The notes under the pieces: generated by a model
Told to the model about the DNA's origin: nothing
Seen by the model: only the letters and a program-made list of their open reading frames with translations
Databases searched by the model: none
NCBI RefSeq assembly: GCF_017348835.2
Contig: NZ_CP071375.1
Strand: one strand, 5' to 3'
Length of the DNA: 64,000 nucleotides
DNA from: Escherichia coli
GTDB taxonomy: Bacteria > Pseudomonadota > Gammaproteobacteria > Enterobacterales > Enterobacteriaceae
In this document: positions 3,536-28,451 of the stretch, piece after piece
Layout of the letters: every line of letters starts with the position of its first letter
Position numbering within the stretch: the stretch's first letter is position 1
Program-made: the position numbers and the translations under genes

Positions 3536-4420
3536 TCAGTCAGTATCCCTTCGCCCGTAAACCTGCGCCACATACCGCCCGCGCCCGTCGCCGTGGCCCA
3601 AATCCATCGACGTCATCGCCAGCGCTTCCTTCTCACAAAATCCCTGCGCCAGATAATGACGAATGGCATCCTGCGCCCATGCGTAGCGCAACGAGTGCGG
3701 GGAATATGCGCCCGTTAAGCCAAGACGTGACGCCTGACTGTGCCAGTATTTCATCGCGCTTTTCAGATCCGGCTTATCTATCAGTCTGCCGTGACGATCT
3801 TCTGCCACCGCCAGCGCATTATCCAGCGCGTTTCTGACAGCAACAGCATCAATAATAATTGTCTCACGGGGTCGCCCGCCTTTGGTGCCGAACACCACGG
3901 TTAAGCGAGTGTCACCAAGATCCAGCGCCTGCCGCCACGTTTTCAGCGATTGTGCGCTTTGTACCGCCTCCTGCGAACGTAATCCCATCAGCCTTGAGAG
4001 TTCCAGCGTTGCCGCCAGCCCCGGATCTTTTGCGCGGGCGGTTTCCAGCACATGGCGGTAATGCTCCGGCGTGATGGCCCGCTTCGTACCGTTACGGGAT
4101 GCGCCAGACAGGCCCAGCGAGCGGTTATTCAGTCGCTCACTCTGCGCCAGCCTGTCACGCCCGGCCTGTTTCAGAATGCAGCGCACCGCCGCCATCTCAT
4201 TTTGCAGGGAACGCTTCGTGATACCCTGCGCCAGTCGTTCACGAACATATCCCTCAATATACCGCGCCTTAAGCTGCTCCACCCGGCGGATCTGCACATT
4301 CTGTGCCAGAACCAGACGCTCACAAAACCGCTGCACCAGCTTAATACGGTCGTGAACGGTCTTATGGCTGCCGCCCGCCTGCTGTGCCAGTCGCTTCATT
4401 TCCTGCTCCAGAATCCCCAT
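3536..4420 (-). CDS. Short tyrosine site-specific recombinase (phage-integrase family, Xer-like size)
   Basis: 294 aa; catalytic-type residues in RLMGLRSQE (Arg), HSLRYAWAQ (H-x-x-R) and C-terminal GRGRYVAQVYG (Tyr). Confidence 0.7.
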   Translation of the reverse strand: MGILEQEMKRLAQQAGGSHKTVHDRIKLVQRFCERLVLAQNVQIRRVEQLKARYIEGYVRERLAQGITKRSLQNEMAAVRCILKQAGRDRLAQSERLNNRSLGLSGASRNGTKRAITPEHYRHVLETARAKDPGLAATLELSRLMGLRSQEAVQSAQSLKTWRQALDLGDTRLTVVFGTKGGRPRETIIIDAVAVRNALDNALAVAEDRHGRLIDKPDLKSAMKYWHSQASRLGLTGAYSPHSLRYAWAQDAIRHYLAQGFCEKEALAMTSMDLGHGDGRGRYVAQVYGRRDTD

Positions 4421-5046
4421 ACATTCCCCCTTTCATGATTGCCGCAAACTCATCCCCAAAAACTCAACACTGATACAGCGTTCCCCGGCGCACAGGCCGA
4501 TAGCCCCTGAGTTTTGTCGGGGCTGCGAACGATACCTGAGCGCCGGGGCGGCAGCCGTTGAGGTGTGGTGGGGCTTCGGTTGTGCTCTCAGAGCAGCCGC
4601 CCGCTTGCGCGGGTCATCCCCCGGATCGTCCAGATCCGCCTCGGTATCGGTTCATGTTCTCCTTATGGGTAAATGGCCTGAAAAGGCGGTGTCAGAATCC
4701 AGCCATGAGCTGGCGCAGTTGAGTTTTCTGGTGCAGGTCGAAAGGGCTTGCGTGCGTCACTTTCCCGCTTTGCGCGGTTAAAGTGACGCACGGATCTGGT
4801 GCAGCATCTGAGATTTATCGTCTGGTGCAGTTTTACGGTCACGCGGCAGCAAAGCCTGACGGCAATGCAGGCCGCAGCCCGTAAGGTAAAAGGCGCTGAG
4901 GGTGTCAGCAGATGCAGGTTAGCCGGGAGAATTCCGGCGCGGTGCAGATTCAGACCAGCAGGCTGGCGAAGTAAAAGGATGTATCGTATTAAAACTCTGG
5001 CCTCCGTCGCGATGTTCTGCGACCCGGTGTTTGCAGAGGTCTGCAC

Positions 5047-5195
5047 CGGTAAACGGATCGACCGTCCTGATAACAGGCGCTTCTTTCAGGTTGTGAAGCG
5101 TTGGGCGCTGTCTACGACAGCATAGAGCAAGGGGGAGACTACGCCTGTGCCGCTGGCGCGGAAAGGAGAAACTGTTTTTACCTGCAAAAGGATTT
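5047..5195. repeat. Imperfect direct repeat, copy A, flanking the toxin-antitoxin cassette
   Basis: Shares ccggtaaa...ccgtcctgata.caggcgcttctttcaggt...tgaagc and gaaactg.ttt..c.g..aaaggatt with 6016-6147. Confidence 0.5.
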
Positions 5196-5212
5196 TTTAA
5201 TCACTTGTTGTT

Positions 5213-5248
5213 ATAAAAAATGAGGGCGCTGTATGTGACAGCGCCCTC
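5213..5248 (-). terminator. Intrinsic terminator downstream of the toxin gene
   Basis: Stem gagggcgctgt/acagcgccctc; on the minus strand it is followed by a U-run. Confidence 0.55.
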
Positions 5249-5269
5249 GTTCAGGTTACATAAAAAATA

Positions 5270-5602
5270 TCAGCTCAGAATAGCTTCCAGTCGAGCCAGC
5301 ACCTCATTCACGACAGCATCGGGTATACGTTCCAGCCGCTTACCGCTCCGAGCTCCCATATCAATGGTTCTGGGCTGGTCGCAGCGAATAACGCCCGTTG
5401 TTTTTGTTCCCGCCCCGTCCAGTGAAACGGTAAAACCGGCTTCGCGGGCAAAGTTTCCGCCGCTGGTGACAGGGACAACAACAGGCAACCGGGTGAACGT
5501 GTTAAACGATGCCTTCGATACGATGAGTACCGGACGTTTTCCACTTTGTTCATGGCCAGTGGTGGGATCCAGTGAAACGAGCCAGATTTCTCCTCTGTCC
5601 AT
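5270..5602 (-). CDS. PemK/MazF-family endoribonuclease toxin (ChpB-like)
   Basis: 110 aa; GEIWLVSLDPTTGHEQSGKRPVLIVS and GGNFAREAGF resemble ChpB/MazF. Confidence 0.85.
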   Translation of the reverse strand: MDRGEIWLVSLDPTTGHEQSGKRPVLIVSKASFNTFTRLPVVVPVTSGGNFAREAGFTVSLDGAGTKTTGVIRCDQPRTIDMGARSGKRLERIPDAVVNEVLARLEAILS

Positions 5603-5860
5603 CTACAGGATCTCCTTGCCCACCGCAGGCGCATCAATCCATTCCCGACCCTCTTCGCTTATTTCAGCGTGCGGATCGCACTGCGCCAACAGTTCTTCGA
5701 GCGAATAGCGGGGACGTTTTTGAGGTTCAATAATCAGGCAGCCATCATCAATGGTCATGCCCACTTCGCTGTCCGTCGACAGCCCTAGCGTTTTCAGCAC
5801 GGCGGGGGGAACCGCCAGCATGACGGATCCGCCAACCTTTTTCAGGCGAGTGGTATACAT
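5603..5860 (-). CDS. MazE/ChpS-like antitoxin
   Basis: ATG at 5858-5860 with GAGGTG just upstream; 85 aa; RYSLEELLAQCD motif as in ChpS; stop abuts the toxin start. The longer ORF-track call (to 6013) is taken as an upstream extension. Confidence 0.8.
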   Translation of the reverse strand: MYTTRLKKVGGSVMLAVPPAVLKTLGLSTDSEVGMTIDDGCLIIEPQKRPRYSLEELLAQCDPHAEISEEGREWIDAPAVGKEIL

Positions 5861-6015
5861 AGAGCACCTCCAGATATTATATTTTAATATAACATCTACG
5901 GCAGACGATGCACAACTATTCATCAGGTTCATTGTGGTTTCCTTAGTGTAATAAAGCGTGAAGAAAGCCTTAATCCATCGGAAGACAGATCCGGCAGTTT
6001 TCAAAGGCGACATTG

Positions 6016-6147
6016 CCGGTAAAAGGGCAACCGTCCTGATACATCAGGCGCTTCTTTCAGGTCATGAAGCATTTCGTACAGGCGGGAGCTTAGTGCGTAA
6101 CAAAGAAGGCCGATAATAGGAAACTGCTTTTGCAGTTCAAAGGATTA
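6016..6147. repeat. Imperfect direct repeat, copy B, flanking the toxin-antitoxin cassette
   Basis: Homologous to 5047-5195; contains palindrome cctgatacatcagg. Confidence 0.5.
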
Positions 6148-6208
6148 TGACGGTTCGGATAAACAAAATGCGGCGCAGCTTCCGTATCCGGGCTGCGCCG
6201 CAGGAACA

Positions 6209-6415
6209 TCAGCGGTAGCGCGAAGGCCAGATTTGCTCAGGCTTGAAGCCTAACGCTTCGGCAATTAACCTTTCGCCTTTGGGCCAGCGGCGGGTAAGCG
6301 CATTAGCCAGCGTGGAGGACGCCAGACCTGCCTGACGCGAAAGCGCTGACAGCGAAGTGCCTCGTTTTTTCAGCCCGGCGATAATGTCGGCAGGATGCCA
6401 GTCCTGCAGCATCAT
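6209..6415 (-). CDS. Ner/Nlp(SfsB)-family small DNA-binding protein
   Basis: 68 aa; WHPADIIAGLKKRGTSLSALSR...STLANAL...WPKGE...WPSRY matches the Ner/Nlp family. Confidence 0.8.
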   Translation of the reverse strand: MMLQDWHPADIIAGLKKRGTSLSALSRQAGLASSTLANALTRRWPKGERLIAEALGFKPEQIWPSRYR

Positions 6416-6873
6416 GCAGCCACCTCGTCGATAAACTTCACGCCGTCGGCGGTGCGGAGCCAGCGCGGGGCTTTCATTTCGGCGGCAAAATACCAGACCA
6501 GTTCACATAATAAGCCTGTTATCGTCTGCTCCACTTTTGGCTGCATCCCCTGCCCGATAAGAAGTTGCGCCAGCGTCAGTGAGTAATCACAAAGTAATTC
6601 TGCGTCGGGGACAAATCGGGGCATATCGGCAGGTAGAGCATCAACGGTCAGGCTGTCAGTCAGATGAGACGGGATGGGGTCGTTCAGCGTGGGTTGCAGC
6701 AAAGTGAGACAGGCGGCAAGTCGCCCGCAAAGCGCCAGCCGCAGCACCGGATCTTCGCTTTCGATCAGGGTTTCGGCGACGTTTTCGCAGTGGTCTGCCA
6801 GTACGGTAAAATCTGTGGCAGCACTGAAGGGAACAGCAAGTAACGGGTGTGTCTGAGTGGGGATCGTAGCCAT
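6412..6873 (-). CDS. Hypothetical protein, 4-bp overlap with the Ner-like gene
   Basis: 153-aa ORF with high GC and no motif I recognise; the overlap suggests an operon with the Ner-like gene. Confidence 0.5.
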   Translation of the reverse strand: MATIPTQTHPLLAVPFSAATDFTVLADHCENVAETLIESEDPVLRLALCGRLAACLTLLQPTLNDPIPSHLTDSLTVDALPADMPRFVPDAELLCDYSLTLAQLLIGQGMQPKVEQTITGLLCELVWYFAAEMKAPRWLRTADGVKFIDEVAA

Positions 6874-7035
6874 AAAGGCAGCCTCCAGTATGTGGTTTGA
6901 AAACCACCACCAGAGGTTCCAATCTCATGGGTGGTGGACTGAACGAGGTTGGAACTACCGGCCATACTGGAACCGGCGCACCTTACGGTGCCCCCGCCCA
7001 GCCCACCATAATTTTGGTGTAGCTAAGCGCGCGAC

Positions 7036-7058
7036 ATAAAAAAAGACGCAGACGCGTC
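7036..7058 (-). terminator. Possible intrinsic terminator for the AT-rich two-gene operon
   Basis: Minus-strand hairpin gacgc-gtct-gcgtc followed by a 7-nt U-run, about 190 bp downstream of the 534-aa ORF. Confidence 0.4.
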
Positions 7059-7243
7059 ACGTGTCGCCAGTATGGTTATATTTCGGGGTTCCAATCCCGG
7101 CACCTGATTTTGCAGGTGCGGGTAAAAGATACCGCTTTCGGTTGAAAACGGCAAGGGGAAGTCGTGGAATAGAGATCGCAGATTGTTATAAATATACACA
7201 ATAGTTAATGTTAACAAAGACGGCACATATATTAACTTTACTC

Positions 7244-8848
7244 TCAATCTGCTGAATAGTTTATCGCATGTAATTCTCGGGTCATATAGTGGATACCCTC
7301 CTTCTTTTCTTTCATCCCCTCTTGCCTCACCATAAAAGCAAACGAAAAAATTGCTGAACGAGTTATCTGAAGTAAATGCTCAAAATGGTGAATAAAATCA
7401 CTTTCTTTGATAAAAAGAATATCTTCTATTAGTTGATAAGATTCGTAAATGTCCTCAGGTTTATCACTTTTATGTACAACTAAAAACTTATGCTCTAAAC
7501 CATTGCGCCATTCTTTATAGAAAGCCAACTCCCCACCCTTATCTTTATTCAGGTCGGTAGCAATACTGTACAGCGCCAGAAGCCCTGGTGATTTTACCTT
7601 TTCAAATAATTGTCTTCTGTTATCAACATCTAACTGCCAGAAATTCTGAAAATAGATATTCTTCTGAGATGTACCTTTTTTTGTTGTTGGGTAAAGATTA
7701 TAAAGTTCACATATGGCTACCGCAATTTTATCAAGAATACCAAAGCAAAGACGAAATGCCGTCCTGATTTTTTCAATTTCTATTCCTAAAACTTCGTCAT
7801 TATACAATTCCAGAAAATGGCTTTCGTACTTAATGTAATCCGTATTTTGTGGATGAAGATAATCAAAATAAAGATGGCGTGCGAGTGAAAACTCCGATTT
7901 AAGGCGATTTAATACCATCTCCATGGGAATGATAAAATCACCTGTTACACCGCCTCGCGAAGCAATCACAAGATCATCTGTAGCACTCCCTACACATGGG
8001 CAATACAGGCCATGTTCTGATAAAGTCAGATGATTTCTAAGACAAAACTGTCGATATGGGCTTAACGCTTCGAACTCTTGTTGTGTAAGTGCTTCATCGT
8101 GTTCGTCAGTTTCATCATCAACAGCATATTCTGCGATTTTCTCGTTAGTCTGCGCTATGCGTTCTAAATAGAACGATTCCCATTGTGGTGGGATATTTTT
8201 TGATACAGACGCTTTAATATATCCTGCTCTCACTTCTTTTAGTAACTTGATTGAAAATGAAGATGAAATAAGATTGAGGACCATAAGTGACATCGAACGG
8301 TTGACCCAAGCCTGTGGTATATCTAATCCCTTAAGATTGGTAAGATCATAATATCTCAATGACTCACTGAGCCGAAATTGACTTCTTAATGAATTAGCCA
8401 AATTAACAGATAGTTCAGCCTGAAATTCCTCCTGCTCCTCAGCAGATAGCTTAAAAGAACGCCAGTAGATATTTTTTAAGGAAACCAATTCTTCTATCGA
8501 TTTGAATGTATGGTCATTGGGGTTAGTAATGCTCACCAGATTAGATAGCGCATTACCATAGTTATAATAGTAAAGGCACTCTCCTAACACTGATATAAAT
8601 GCTTCTTTGTTATCTTCCATCAGGTTGCAACCAAGCTCTGACGCATTTTTATTATTTTGCATCTGCCCGATGTCAACAAGAGCACCCGCAATGTTCGCCA
8701 ATACTATAAAGTAGTTATCGTTCCTGATTGTTATTCTTTCCAGTTTGTTCAGGAACGCAACTGACTGTTGATAAGATTCGTCAAATCTTCCAATATCAAC
8801 CAGTTGGCTAATGAAATTACTTTCATCGACAAGTTCTTTTGTTATCAA
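7244..8848 (-). CDS. Large hypothetical protein with C-terminal HEPN-like motif (candidate RNase effector)
   Basis: 534 aa, strongly AT-rich coding sequence, TTG start 12 nt after the upstream gene's stop. C-terminal EWRNGLEH fits the HEPN R-x4-H motif. Confidence 0.6.
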   Translation of the reverse strand: MITKELVDESNFISQLVDIGRFDESYQQSVAFLNKLERITIRNDNYFIVLANIAGALVDIGQMQNNKNASELGCNLMEDNKEAFISVLGECLYYYNYGNALSNLVSITNPNDHTFKSIEELVSLKNIYWRSFKLSAEEQEEFQAELSVNLANSLRSQFRLSESLRYYDLTNLKGLDIPQAWVNRSMSLMVLNLISSSFSIKLLKEVRAGYIKASVSKNIPPQWESFYLERIAQTNEKIAEYAVDDETDEHDEALTQQEFEALSPYRQFCLRNHLTLSEHGLYCPCVGSATDDLVIASRGGVTGDFIIPMEMVLNRLKSEFSLARHLYFDYLHPQNTDYIKYESHFLELYNDEVLGIEIEKIRTAFRLCFGILDKIAVAICELYNLYPTTKKGTSQKNIYFQNFWQLDVDNRRQLFEKVKSPGLLALYSIATDLNKDKGGELAFYKEWRNGLEHKFLVVHKSDKPEDIYESYQLIEDILFIKESDFIHHFEHLLQITRSAIFSFAFMVRQEGMKEKKEGIHYMTRELHAINYSAD

Positions 8849-8860
8849 AATAAATTTTCC

Positions 8861-22831: not shown

Positions 22832-22907
22832 TGGCTCCTCTGACTGGACTCGAACCAGTGACATACGGATTAACAGTCCGCCGTTCTACCGACTGAACTA
22901 CAGAGGA
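22832..22907 (-). tRNA. asnW: tRNA-Asn (GUU)
   Basis: Reverse complement reads TCCTCTGTAGTTCAGTCGGTAGAACGGCGGACTGTTAATCCGTATGTCACTGGTTCGAGTCCAGTCAGAGGAGCCA. Confidence 0.95.
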
Positions 22908-24294: not shown

Positions 24295-25182
24295 TCAGGC
24301 TGCCAGATCATTATTTCCGATGGAAGCATAATAAGCTTTTTCTGCTTCTGCCGGAGGAATATGGCCCAGCCTTTCCAGCAATCGTCGATTGTTATACCAG
24401 TCCACCCACGTTAGTGTGGCCAGTTCCACTTCTGTCCGGTTTTTCCAGCTCTTACGGTGTATTACCTCCGCTTTGTAAAGACCATTGATGCTCTCAGCCA
24501 TCGCGTTGTCATACGAGTCGCCAGTACTCCCTGTTGATGCCAGTAATCCGGCTTCCTTAAGCCGCTGCGTGTAGGCCAGCGATACATACTGAGAACCTTT
24601 ATCACTGTGATGGATTGTGCCGGACGGCCGACGGGCCCACAACGCCTGCTCCAGTGCATCCAGCACGAATGTTGTTTCCATGGATGATGAGACCTGCCAT
24701 CCCACGATGTATCCGGCGAACACATCAATGATGAACGCCACATAAACGAAGCCCTGCCATGTGCTTACCCAGGTAAAATCAGCCACCCACAACTGGTCTG
24801 GACGTTCTGCCACGAACTGACGGTTTACGCGGTCGCATGCGGCAACGGCTTTCCGGCTGACGGTAGTGCGGACCTTTTTACCCCGGAGAACACCGGCAAG
24901 TCCCATAACTGCCATGAGACGTGCCACAGTGCATCTGGCCACTCTGATACCTTCCCGTAACAACTGACGCCAGACTTTACGCACACCGTATACCTGGTGA
25001 TTTTCATCGTATACGCGCTGTATCTCTTTCTTCAGCCAGTCATCGTGCTGCGCACGGGCACTGCGTTTATCCGGATGATGTCGCTGTTGCTGACAATGGT
25101 AATACGTTGACGGGGCAATATGCAGTTCGCTGCATACCGGTCCGACCCCGTACTGCTCACGCAGCTTATCCAGCAGTGGCAT
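24295..25182 (-). CDS. IS3-family transposase OrfB
   Basis: 295 aa, near-identical to 12141-13028. Confidence 0.85.
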   Translation of the reverse strand: MPLLDKLREQYGVGPVCSELHIAPSTYYHCQQQRHHPDKRSARAQHDDWLKKEIQRVYDENHQVYGVRKVWRQLLREGIRVARCTVARLMAVMGLAGVLRGKKVRTTVSRKAVAACDRVNRQFVAERPDQLWVADFTWVSTWQGFVYVAFIIDVFAGYIVGWQVSSSMETTFVLDALEQALWARRPSGTIHHSDKGSQYVSLAYTQRLKEAGLLASTGSTGDSYDNAMAESINGLYKAEVIHRKSWKNRTEVELATLTWVDWYNNRRLLERLGHIPPAEAEKAYYASIGNNDLAA

Positions 25183-25508
25183 TATTTTTTCCAGAGGCGG
25201 TCGAACTCCGCCTTCGCAAAATAAGCGGAAGCCTGGCGAAGGATATCGTTACTGCGGCGCAGTTCACGATTTTCACGTTCCAGCTCTTTCAGACGCTGAC
25301 GTTCAGCGGTGGTGAGTCCACCATCACCACTCCCGGTATCCCGCTCATGCTGGCGAACCCAGACACGCAGAGTCTCCGGCGTACAGCCAATCTTTGGGGC
25401 AATGGAACAAATTGCCGCCCACTGTGAGTCATATTCATCCTGACTTTCCAGAACCATACGAATCGCCCGCTGACGGACTTCGGGGGAAAAACGAGTATTT
25501 TTAGTCAT
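25182..25508 (-). CDS. IS3-family transposase OrfA
   Basis: 108 aa, identical to 11815-12141 product. Confidence 0.85.
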
Positions 25509-25968: not shown

Positions 25969-26044
25969 TCCTCTGTAGTTCAGTCGGTAGAACGGCGGAC
26001 TGTTAATCCGTATGTCACTGGTTCGAGTCCAGTCAGAGGAGCCA
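25969..26044 (+). tRNA. asnU: tRNA-Asn (GUU)
   Basis: 76-nt sequence identical to the other Asn tRNA copies; ends in CCA. Confidence 0.95.
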
Positions 26045-28375: not shown

Positions 28376-28451
28376 TCCTCTGTAGTTCAGTCGGTAGAAC
28401 GGCGGACTGTTAATCCGTATGTCACTGGTTCGAGTCCAGTCAGAGGAGCCA
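28376..28451 (+). tRNA. asnV: tRNA-Asn (GUU)
   Basis: Third identical 76-nt Asn tRNA copy, with a downstream hairpin terminator. Confidence 0.95.

Follow-up and report, generated by a model that had tools for sequence, protein, structure and literature searches.

In a 64,000-nucleotide (64 kb) stretch of the Escherichia coli contig NZ_CP071375.1, to which we refer as the window, the toxin-antitoxin genes pemI and pemK are bracketed by two imperfect direct repeats, and the question raised by this locus is what these repeats are and what they do beside such an operon. Three readings had been offered in the initial annotation, namely cassette-like acquisition, recombination-site remnants and duplicated regulatory elements. 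Our results make it very likely that the repeats are two diverged paralogous copies, here copy A and copy B, of a single STAXI-class element, structured and non-coding, which resides in enterobacterial genomic islands. Of the earlier readings, duplicated regulatory elements comes closest to this evidence, while the interpretation of the repeats as insertion scars had to be abandoned for the reasons given below. All genes, RNAs and copies of the element described here lie on the minus strand unless marked otherwise.

The repeats around pemIK and their resemblance to STAXI

The two repeats are genuine and stand where they had been placed. Their core measures 57-59 nt (5046-5102 in copy A, 6016-6073 in copy B), is 83-85% identical and contains indels of 1 and 2 nt, and a second block of 27 nt (5168-5194 in copy A, 6120-6146 in copy B) is 74% identical. 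Local alignment of the copies scored 67, as opposed to 17.4 +/- 2.3 with a maximum of 32 in 2000 dinucleotide shuffles, and to 28 for the next-best segment of the window, so that the similarity lies far above background, a concern raised when the repeats were first described. Nor did the second concern materialize, that the repeat might occur in many unrelated intergenic regions, as the element is rare and always found in the same context. The core pattern, searched with up to three mismatches, had no third copy within the window, profile and covariance-model searches of the same 64 kb returned copies A and B only, and no E. coli genome carried the element in more than three places, unlike REP- or ERIC-type repeats, which occur in many copies per genome at unrelated intergenic sites. 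The element is also longer than had been thought, as covariance-model alignment moves its end to 4994 (copy A) and 5961 (copy B). The part added beyond the core corresponds to a second pseudoknot unit, whose structure is conserved although its sequence is not.

The identity of the element was suggested by a match to the Rfam model STAXI (RF01728) at 4983-5122 (37.3 bits, E = 6e-6), which covers the core of copy A, and in which copy A aligns across the whole model. When the A-type copies of four sister loci were compared to the same model, they scored between 28.5 and 39.8 bits. A covariance model built from 17 B-type copies only (model R1) scored copy B at 148 bits and, when used to search the window, recovered copy A end to end (4994-5107, 53.6 bits, E = 1e-9) and nothing besides these two. 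Copy B is a divergent STAXI-like subtype that lacks the 5' hairpin of the Rfam model and whose second unit has diverged in sequence, and it is therefore missed by Rfam, where it had no match at E <= 10.

STAXI was described as a pseudoknot occurring in two or three repeats near genes for integrases, single-stranded-DNA-binding protein (ssb), topoisomerases and anti-restriction proteins, and in some cases close to c4 RNAs (Weinberg et al. 2010, PMC2864571). A second motif, EFASI, owes its name to its position, which is downstream of STAXI by a few hundred bp and ahead of integrase genes, and transcripts of both STAXI and EFASI have been detected by quantitative reverse-transcription PCR in another E. 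coli strain (PMC12370729). The locus studied here agrees with these descriptions in several respects. Two H-type pseudoknots are found in both copies, and a tyrosine-recombinase-like gene with Integrase_1 and Phage_int_SAM_2 domains (3536-4420; Pfam PF12835, E = 5e-63, and PF12834, E = 8e-36) lies nearby, a linkage that recurs in most of the related loci examined, which come from about 20 genera. This gene is the "XerDC integrase" partner of STAXI and EFASI. EFASI itself (4526-4655, Rfam RF02957, 118.7 bits) follows the Rfam STAXI match after 328 nt and is separated by 105 nt from the integrase-domain gene downstream, the placement to be expected for copy A, and a C4 RNA lies nearby (6927-7013), whereas copy B is followed by pemIK instead of EFASI.

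A small protein encoded over the repeats was also considered, given an open reading frame at 5958-6116 on the plus strand of the window, and was rejected on account of the 1- and 2-nt indels between the copies inside the core; the variation in length, from 109 to 143 amino acids (aa) between loci, of the reading frames containing pemI is likewise against it. RefSeq does annotate a hypothetical protein on the strand opposite to copy B in two other loci, that of strain LF82 (L003, 9557-9748, plus strand) and L006 (3063-3254, plus strand). The indels, together with the covariation reported below, indicate that such calls are reading frames miscalled on a structured non-coding element, and the STAXI identity would account for their conservation.

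Fold, folded strand and possible role of the element

Read on the minus strand, each copy contains two units of one design, in which the loop of stem A holds the 5' half of an outer stem and an inner hairpin completes the unit. Copy A (4994-5198), as delimited by Rfam STAXI, model R1 and the structure alignment, begins with a conserved upstream block (5168-5198) and the P0 hairpin (5107-5121; stems 5116-5121 and 5107-5112), followed by pseudoknot unit 1 (5059-5099; stem A 5095-5099/5079-5083, outer stem 5089-5093/5059-5063, inner hairpin 5074-5077/5066-5069) and unit 2 (5001-5049; stem A' 5044-5049/5024-5029, inner hairpin 5019-5023/5006-5010, outer stem 5035-5039/5001-5005). Copy B (5961-6147), the subtype without P0, was delimited using model R1, pair counts, covariation and homology to copy A, and comprises an upstream block (6120-6146), unit 1 (6028-6070; stem A 6066-6070/6050-6054, outer stem 6060-6064/6028-6032, inner hairpin 6044-6048/6035-6039) and unit 2 (5967-6019; stem A' 6014-6019/5991-5996, inner hairpin 5984-5990/5973-5979, outer stem 6004-6008/5967-5971). 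P0 is the first stem of the Rfam model; copy B shows a 17-nt gap in its place, while the B-like copies of Brenneria and Affinibrenneria have kept it. In Brenneria alni (L072, 2556-3709) and in Affinibrenneria (L060 and L061), pemIK in fact sits between such a B-like copy with a 5' hairpin and a third STAXI subtype, whose unit 2 has the stems CGGCAA/CUGCCG and GCCCC/GGGGU, and this form may be an intermediate of the A and B types.

The fold was assessed on 51 copies, 50 of which are distinct, from about 20 enterobacterial genera, aligned by covariance model since an earlier MAFFT alignment of all types had misregistered unit 2. Stems were classified by hand, as single-linkage clustering of the element segments lumped all of them together and was uninformative. 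Among the 50 distinct copies, the 32 pairs of the six helices are paired in 95.7% of cells, compared to 86.3% in shuffles and 21-44% when partners are slid, and compensatory changes occur at 14 pairs, with both sides changed in 174 cells. The covariation score was 0.313 versus 0.156 and was reached by none of 500 shuffles, and the two pseudoknot helices that lie outside the model are 97.6% and 94.2% paired. Over all pairs of the alignment, G-U cells outnumber A-C cells 126 to 29, and in the outer helix of unit 1, which the model does not contain, 41 to 3. This excess points to the gene-sense strand as the folded one, which fits RNA and opposes a template-strand promoter hairpin in single-stranded DNA, and it is probably as RNA that the minus strand folds. 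The minimum-free-energy z-scores of the strands of copy A (-2.9 sense, -1.8 antisense) lean in the same direction, though weakly.

Some points weigh against our interpretation and should be acknowledged. Copy A falls 3 bits under the Rfam gathering score of 40.5, and copy B goes undetected by Rfam. Stem A and the loop of unit 1 were fixed by the search pattern, hence their invariance carries no information, and alignment to a sense-strand model favours that structure and that strand for the four modelled helices. The copies are, furthermore, related sequences, so that significance is overstated by the shuffle controls. No -10 element is recognizable in A-type and relE-type copies, which may be transcribed by read-through, and the role as a leader or small RNA that we put forward next is a guess.

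The element belongs to an accessory module that is conserved among enterobacterial islands at tRNA-Asn genes and is made up of c4/isrK, a 153-aa protein, a Ner-like helix-turn-helix (HTH) protein, STAXI, a variable slot, EFASI and the Integrase_1 recombinase, with pemIK in the slot of this window, and, as we picture it, one STAXI-type element would stand at the start of each transcription unit. Copy B follows the upstream terminator and, with a predicted sigma-70-like promoter of its own, precedes pemIK; copy A follows the terminator of pemK and precedes EFASI and the recombinase gene. The upstream terminator is likely to be a GC-rich hairpin with a T-rich tract at 6171-6202, read from the sequence and seen in the alignment, which would end the operon of the 153-aa and HTH genes and just past which copy B begins. 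The predicted promoter preceding copy B was found by a consensus scan at 6113-6140 (TTGAAC, a 16-nt spacer and TATTAT), and its hexamers are retained by B-type copies in other genera, whereas A-type and relE-type copies lack them. The intrinsic terminator of pemIK, an 11-bp stem followed by a T run, lies at 5222-5248, and copy A begins about 24 nt past it. As an RNA, be it a 5' leader or a discrete small RNA, the element would affect the expression or stability of the unit it heads, a role for which we see about even chances. The two-copy arrangement would represent an old duplication or mosaic maintained across genera, with no recent insertion, and exchange within the conserved core would have shuffled upstream halves, downstream halves and cargo among island variants. 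Taken as a whole, the explanation that combines STAXI-type copies, the two-pseudoknot fold, the tRNA-Asn island module and a role in RNA is one that we regard as likely. With regard to possible partners, RNAduplex found complementarity between the C4 RNA and either STAXI copy to be no better than in shuffles, and that between EFASI and copy A to be marginal (9 of 200 shuffles were as good).

The variable slot and other readings of the repeats

Copy B has matches in 39 of 5426 complete E. coli genomes, all of them chromosomal, and in 145 plasmids, nearly all of which are pESI-type Salmonella megaplasmids. A 21-nt core pattern identified true elements in about 20 genera of Enterobacterales, and its matches in non-enterobacterial genome contigs were discarded as short chance matches. 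A link to phages was rejected as well, as the only true element in a scan of 2.9 million viral contigs (L083) sits in the same type of island, with relE/HTH. All true elements share one backbone order, namely the 153-aa gene, the HTH_35 gene, the STAXI-type element, a variable slot, EFASI and the Integrase_1 gene, and the position right after STAXI is a polymorphic slot for toxin-antitoxin cargo, with three states. When the slot is empty there is one copy, as in strain LR-46, which matches window positions 4400-5198 and 6213-7155; pemIK and its surroundings therefore correspond to an indel of 5199-6212, with edges at 5198/5199 and 6212/6213, outside the repeat cores. When it holds relE/HTH there is again one copy, as in strain N47, which matches 4400-4899 and 6213-7300, so that the replacement spans 4900-6212 (edge at 4899/4900) and removes copy A entirely. 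When it holds pemIK, a B-type copy precedes the operon and an A-type copy follows it. This state was seen in the window, in LF82, in Klebsiella indica, Citrobacter youngae and Salmonella arizonae, and in Pantoea, Tatumella and Entomohabitans, and the suggestion that homologous pairs be checked for the same flanking repeats was borne out by two copies in every pemIK locus with both flanks readable. One locus, that of Trabulsiella (L077), has copy B with no pemIK behind it, and the downstream reading frames look like noise. Some copies are mosaics and point to exchange within the conserved core: in that of Affinibrenneria, unit 1 is B-type and unit 2 relE-type, copy A of C. youngae has a B-like unit 1, and Mixta has a B-like 5' half joined to another unit 2 at an empty locus.

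The pESI-type megaplasmid of Salmonella Infantis (L001) carries, at 6001-7569, a pemIK region 82% identical to 4642-6240 of the window and shared by the 145 plasmids. Because both STAXI-type copies are part of this plasmid region, together with a 3' stub of the island HTH gene, the pESI addiction module appears to be derived from such an island. Solo pemIK fragments, found in pESI plasmids and in Citrobacter, Enterobacter, Pantoea and Edaphovirga, carry along stubs of 30-100 nt of the HTH gene, and for this reason we take them to have moved as arbitrary pieces.

Could the STAXI copies be recombination sites of the adjacent Integrase_1 tyrosine recombinase, perhaps acting as folded DNA in the manner of attC, with pemIK and relE/HTH as the exchanged cassettes? 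The consistent linkage of the element to a tyrosine-recombinase gene, the single slot with its three states of occupancy, the mosaic junctions near the conserved UUUACCGG linker, and a role of STAXI in single-stranded DNA, already raised by Weinberg et al. (2010), would all speak in its favour. However, the edges of neither indel fall inside the repeats, the relE state retains one copy rather than two and lacks copy A, and the 5' half of copy B is unlike that of the empty-locus type, which argues against crossover inside the element. The solo fragments with their HTH-gene stubs and the G-U bias, which fits RNA, point the same way, and we therefore deem this possibility unlikely. The mosaics are compatible with homologous exchange between paralogues, for which a dedicated recombinase is not required.

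A related and bolder idea would see in the STAXI-type elements the structured signals for boundaries or recognition in a cassette platform worked by the neighbouring Integrase_1 recombinase, where toxin-antitoxin modules would be exchanged as in integrons, but with a different recombinase and a pseudoknot-forming site. If true, it would give the orphan trio of STAXI, EFASI and integrase a function, yet it remains, in our judgment, a long shot. The locus does share with integrons and their attC sites a set of structured, sequence-variable repeats beside a tyrosine recombinase, with toxin-antitoxin genes in the variable slot. In integrons, however, boundaries fall at a core site within the repeats, with one repeat per cassette, while the edges at 5198/5199, 6212/6213 and 4899/4900 all lie outside the cores, the recombinase belongs to another family and is co-oriented, and a single copy accompanies one of the cargo states. 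Nor was a conserved site of crossover found.

Quite improbable is a further alternative, that the element is a promoter or priming site in single-stranded DNA, of the Frpo or ssi type, on the transferred strand of a mobile element. STAXI does occur elsewhere near ssb and anti-restriction genes, a cargo resembling that of leading regions. A promoter of the Frpo type, however, must fold on the template strand, whereas the wobble pairs favour the gene-sense strand; moreover, no conjugation or transfer genes are annotated in the island stretch examined, and the element forms tandem pseudoknots with no single long promoter hairpin.

Finally, the reading of the repeats as scars left by the insertion of a mobile toxin-antitoxin cassette, whether as target duplications or transposon ends, is to us barely conceivable, since, even though there are direct repeats on both sides of the operon and an allele with the site empty, neither indel edge falls within the repeats, the empty site holds a complete copy and no half site, full-length copies occur singly in islands without a toxin-antitoxin pair, the repeats are 150-200 nt long, under structural selection, 15-25% diverged in the core and alike only in structure beyond it, the arrangement is common to many genera, and the cassette has no transposase or terminal inverted repeats of its own.

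The pemIK operon, its island and known systems

The pair had been described as ChpS/ChpB-like, which holds inasmuch as it is a type II pair of the MazEF superfamily and ChpB is a chromosomal relative in the same family, while the toxin is nearest to Kid/PemK. PemK (5270-5602, 110 aa; Pfam PemK_toxin PF02452, E = 4e-29) has, in fact, Kid of plasmid R1 as its nearest solved structure (PDB 1m1f, E = 7e-54, full length), and the kis-like pemI (5603-5860, 85 aa) encodes an antitoxin matching Pfam MazE_antitoxin (PF04014, E = 2e-6) and assigned by RefSeq to the AbrB/MazE/SpoVT family. The genes form one operon, pemI then pemK, with reading frames that abut at 5602/5603. By homology, then, the pair is identified as Kis/Kid, that is PemI/PemK, and is probably an ordinary addiction or stress module of that type, autoregulated at an AT-rich inverted repeat by the start codon.

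The location of that operator bears on one more reading of the repeats, according to which they would be duplicated operator DNA with a palindrome bound by PemI or the PemI-PemK complex. A perfect 14-bp palindrome, cctgatacatcagg (CCTGAT-AC-ATCAGG), is indeed present at 6035-6048, as the initial annotation had it, and lies upstream of pemI. It is, however, 175 bp away from the start codon, and it coincides with the inner hairpin of unit 1 of copy B (CCUGA-UGUA-UCAGG), whose equivalents are CCUG-UUAU-CAGG in copy A and CCUGA-CCUG-UCAGG or GCCUG-AUUU-CAGGC in other loci. Because arms and loop vary in sequence and length among copies while pairing is kept, and because the hairpin also occurs in loci without pemIK, the palindrome is unlikely to be a PemI operator, and this explanation of the repeats is hardly credible. 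A better candidate for the PemI or PemIK operator would be the AT-rich inverted repeat TTATATT-TT-AATATAA, read from the sequence at 5877-5892, 17-32 bp upstream of the pemI start codon. It overlaps the likely -10 region, and GAUGUUAUAUUAAAAUAUAAU is identical across all pemIK loci examined. The parD system of plasmid R1 provides the model for an operator at an AT-rich inverted repeat by the promoter. In the Kis/Kid family, the toxin is an endoribonuclease that the antitoxin neutralizes, and the operon regulates itself at a palindrome in its promoter, for which 5877-5892 is the candidate here.

The chromosomes of E. coli PE164 and F2_81 contain the window in identical form, and that of LF82 is 92.6% identical over this stretch. 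The region is a chromosomal island at a tRNA-Asn gene, which contains, in order, a P4-type integrase and IS66, the Integrase_1-domain gene, pemK and pemI, the HTH_35/Ner-like gene, the 153-aa gene, a gene for an LA2681-type HEPN protein and a 954-aa gene. The Ner-like HTH_35 repressor gene (6209-6415, identified by Pfam) and the gene of the 153-aa protein, to which no family could be assigned (6412-6873), form the backbone operon (6209-6873), which lies upstream of the element in most related loci. This operon is headed by a set of RNAs at 6927-7132, all above the Rfam gathering score: a C4 antisense RNA (6927-7013, 83.2 bits), isrK (7039-7119, 72.6 bits) and the c4 a1/b1 target (7080-7132, 48 bits). 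The set resembles immI of phage P1, the island has no phage structural genes nearby, and the same set is found in the sister islands L003-L006. Further along, at 7244-11725, the HEPN protein (534 aa) is followed by the 954-aa protein, for which there was no match in Pfam or PADLOC; scans with PADLOC and PHROGs returned nothing for the 153-aa, HEPN and 954-aa proteins. The HEPN and 954-aa genes may be an uncharacterized defence pair, and their slot holds other cargo in LF82 and LR-46.

Elsewhere in the window, two IS3-family copies with identical matches to the ALIL frameshift pseudoknot (12096-12212, plus strand, and 25111-25227, minus strand) lie inverted about 13 kb apart and bracket a truncated gene for an Ig-like adhesin, shiA, amn and a tRNA, and they may reflect inversion mediated by the insertion sequences or a composite element. 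Three tRNA genes with identical scores (22835-22907, minus strand; 25969-26041 and 28376-28448, plus strand) are presumably members of the asn tRNA family, as PE164 and LF82 have tRNA-Asn annotated in the neighbourhood, and would offer several alternative integration sites for islands.

How, then, does this locus compare with known systems? With parD (kis/kid), which is the pem system of plasmids R1 and R100 and a relative of chpB and mazEF, it shares the antitoxin-toxin order, the abutting frames, the Kid-like toxin and the AT-rich inverted repeat at the promoter, but here the operon is chromosomal, within a tRNA-Asn island, and has a STAXI-type element in front of it. The antitoxin RNAs of type III systems such as ToxI are also built of tandem pseudoknot units and precede an endoribonuclease toxin whose fold is Kid/MazF-like; those systems, however, have near-identical tandem repeats and no protein antitoxin, whereas units 1 and 2 differ from one another in our element, pemI encodes a protein antitoxin, and the element also occurs with no toxin gene. 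EFASI is found at its expected position, downstream of copy A and upstream of the integrase-domain gene, but it is a separate element outside the repeats, and none follows copy B.

The closest likeness is to STAXI, with which the element has in common the tandem pseudoknot units, the occurrence in Enterobacterales, the adjacent integrase-type gene, the c4 RNA nearby and EFASI a few hundred bp downstream. It differs in that copy A has two units where STAXI usually has three, and in that copy B lacks the 5' hairpin, carries a diverged unit 2 and its own predicted promoter, and is found coupled to pemIK in different genera. Neither STAXI and EFASI nor their association with integrases is new, and pemIK is ordinary; the novel points are the B-type subtype invisible to Rfam, its fixed coupling to pemIK, and the slot for toxin-antitoxin genes that follows STAXI. 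To this motif, an orphan since 2010, a second subtype can now be added, tightly coupled to pemIK across about 20 genera, the pseudoknots of both subtypes are backed by covariation, and the excess of wobble pairs speaks for the gene-sense strand, hence for RNA and against template-strand DNA.

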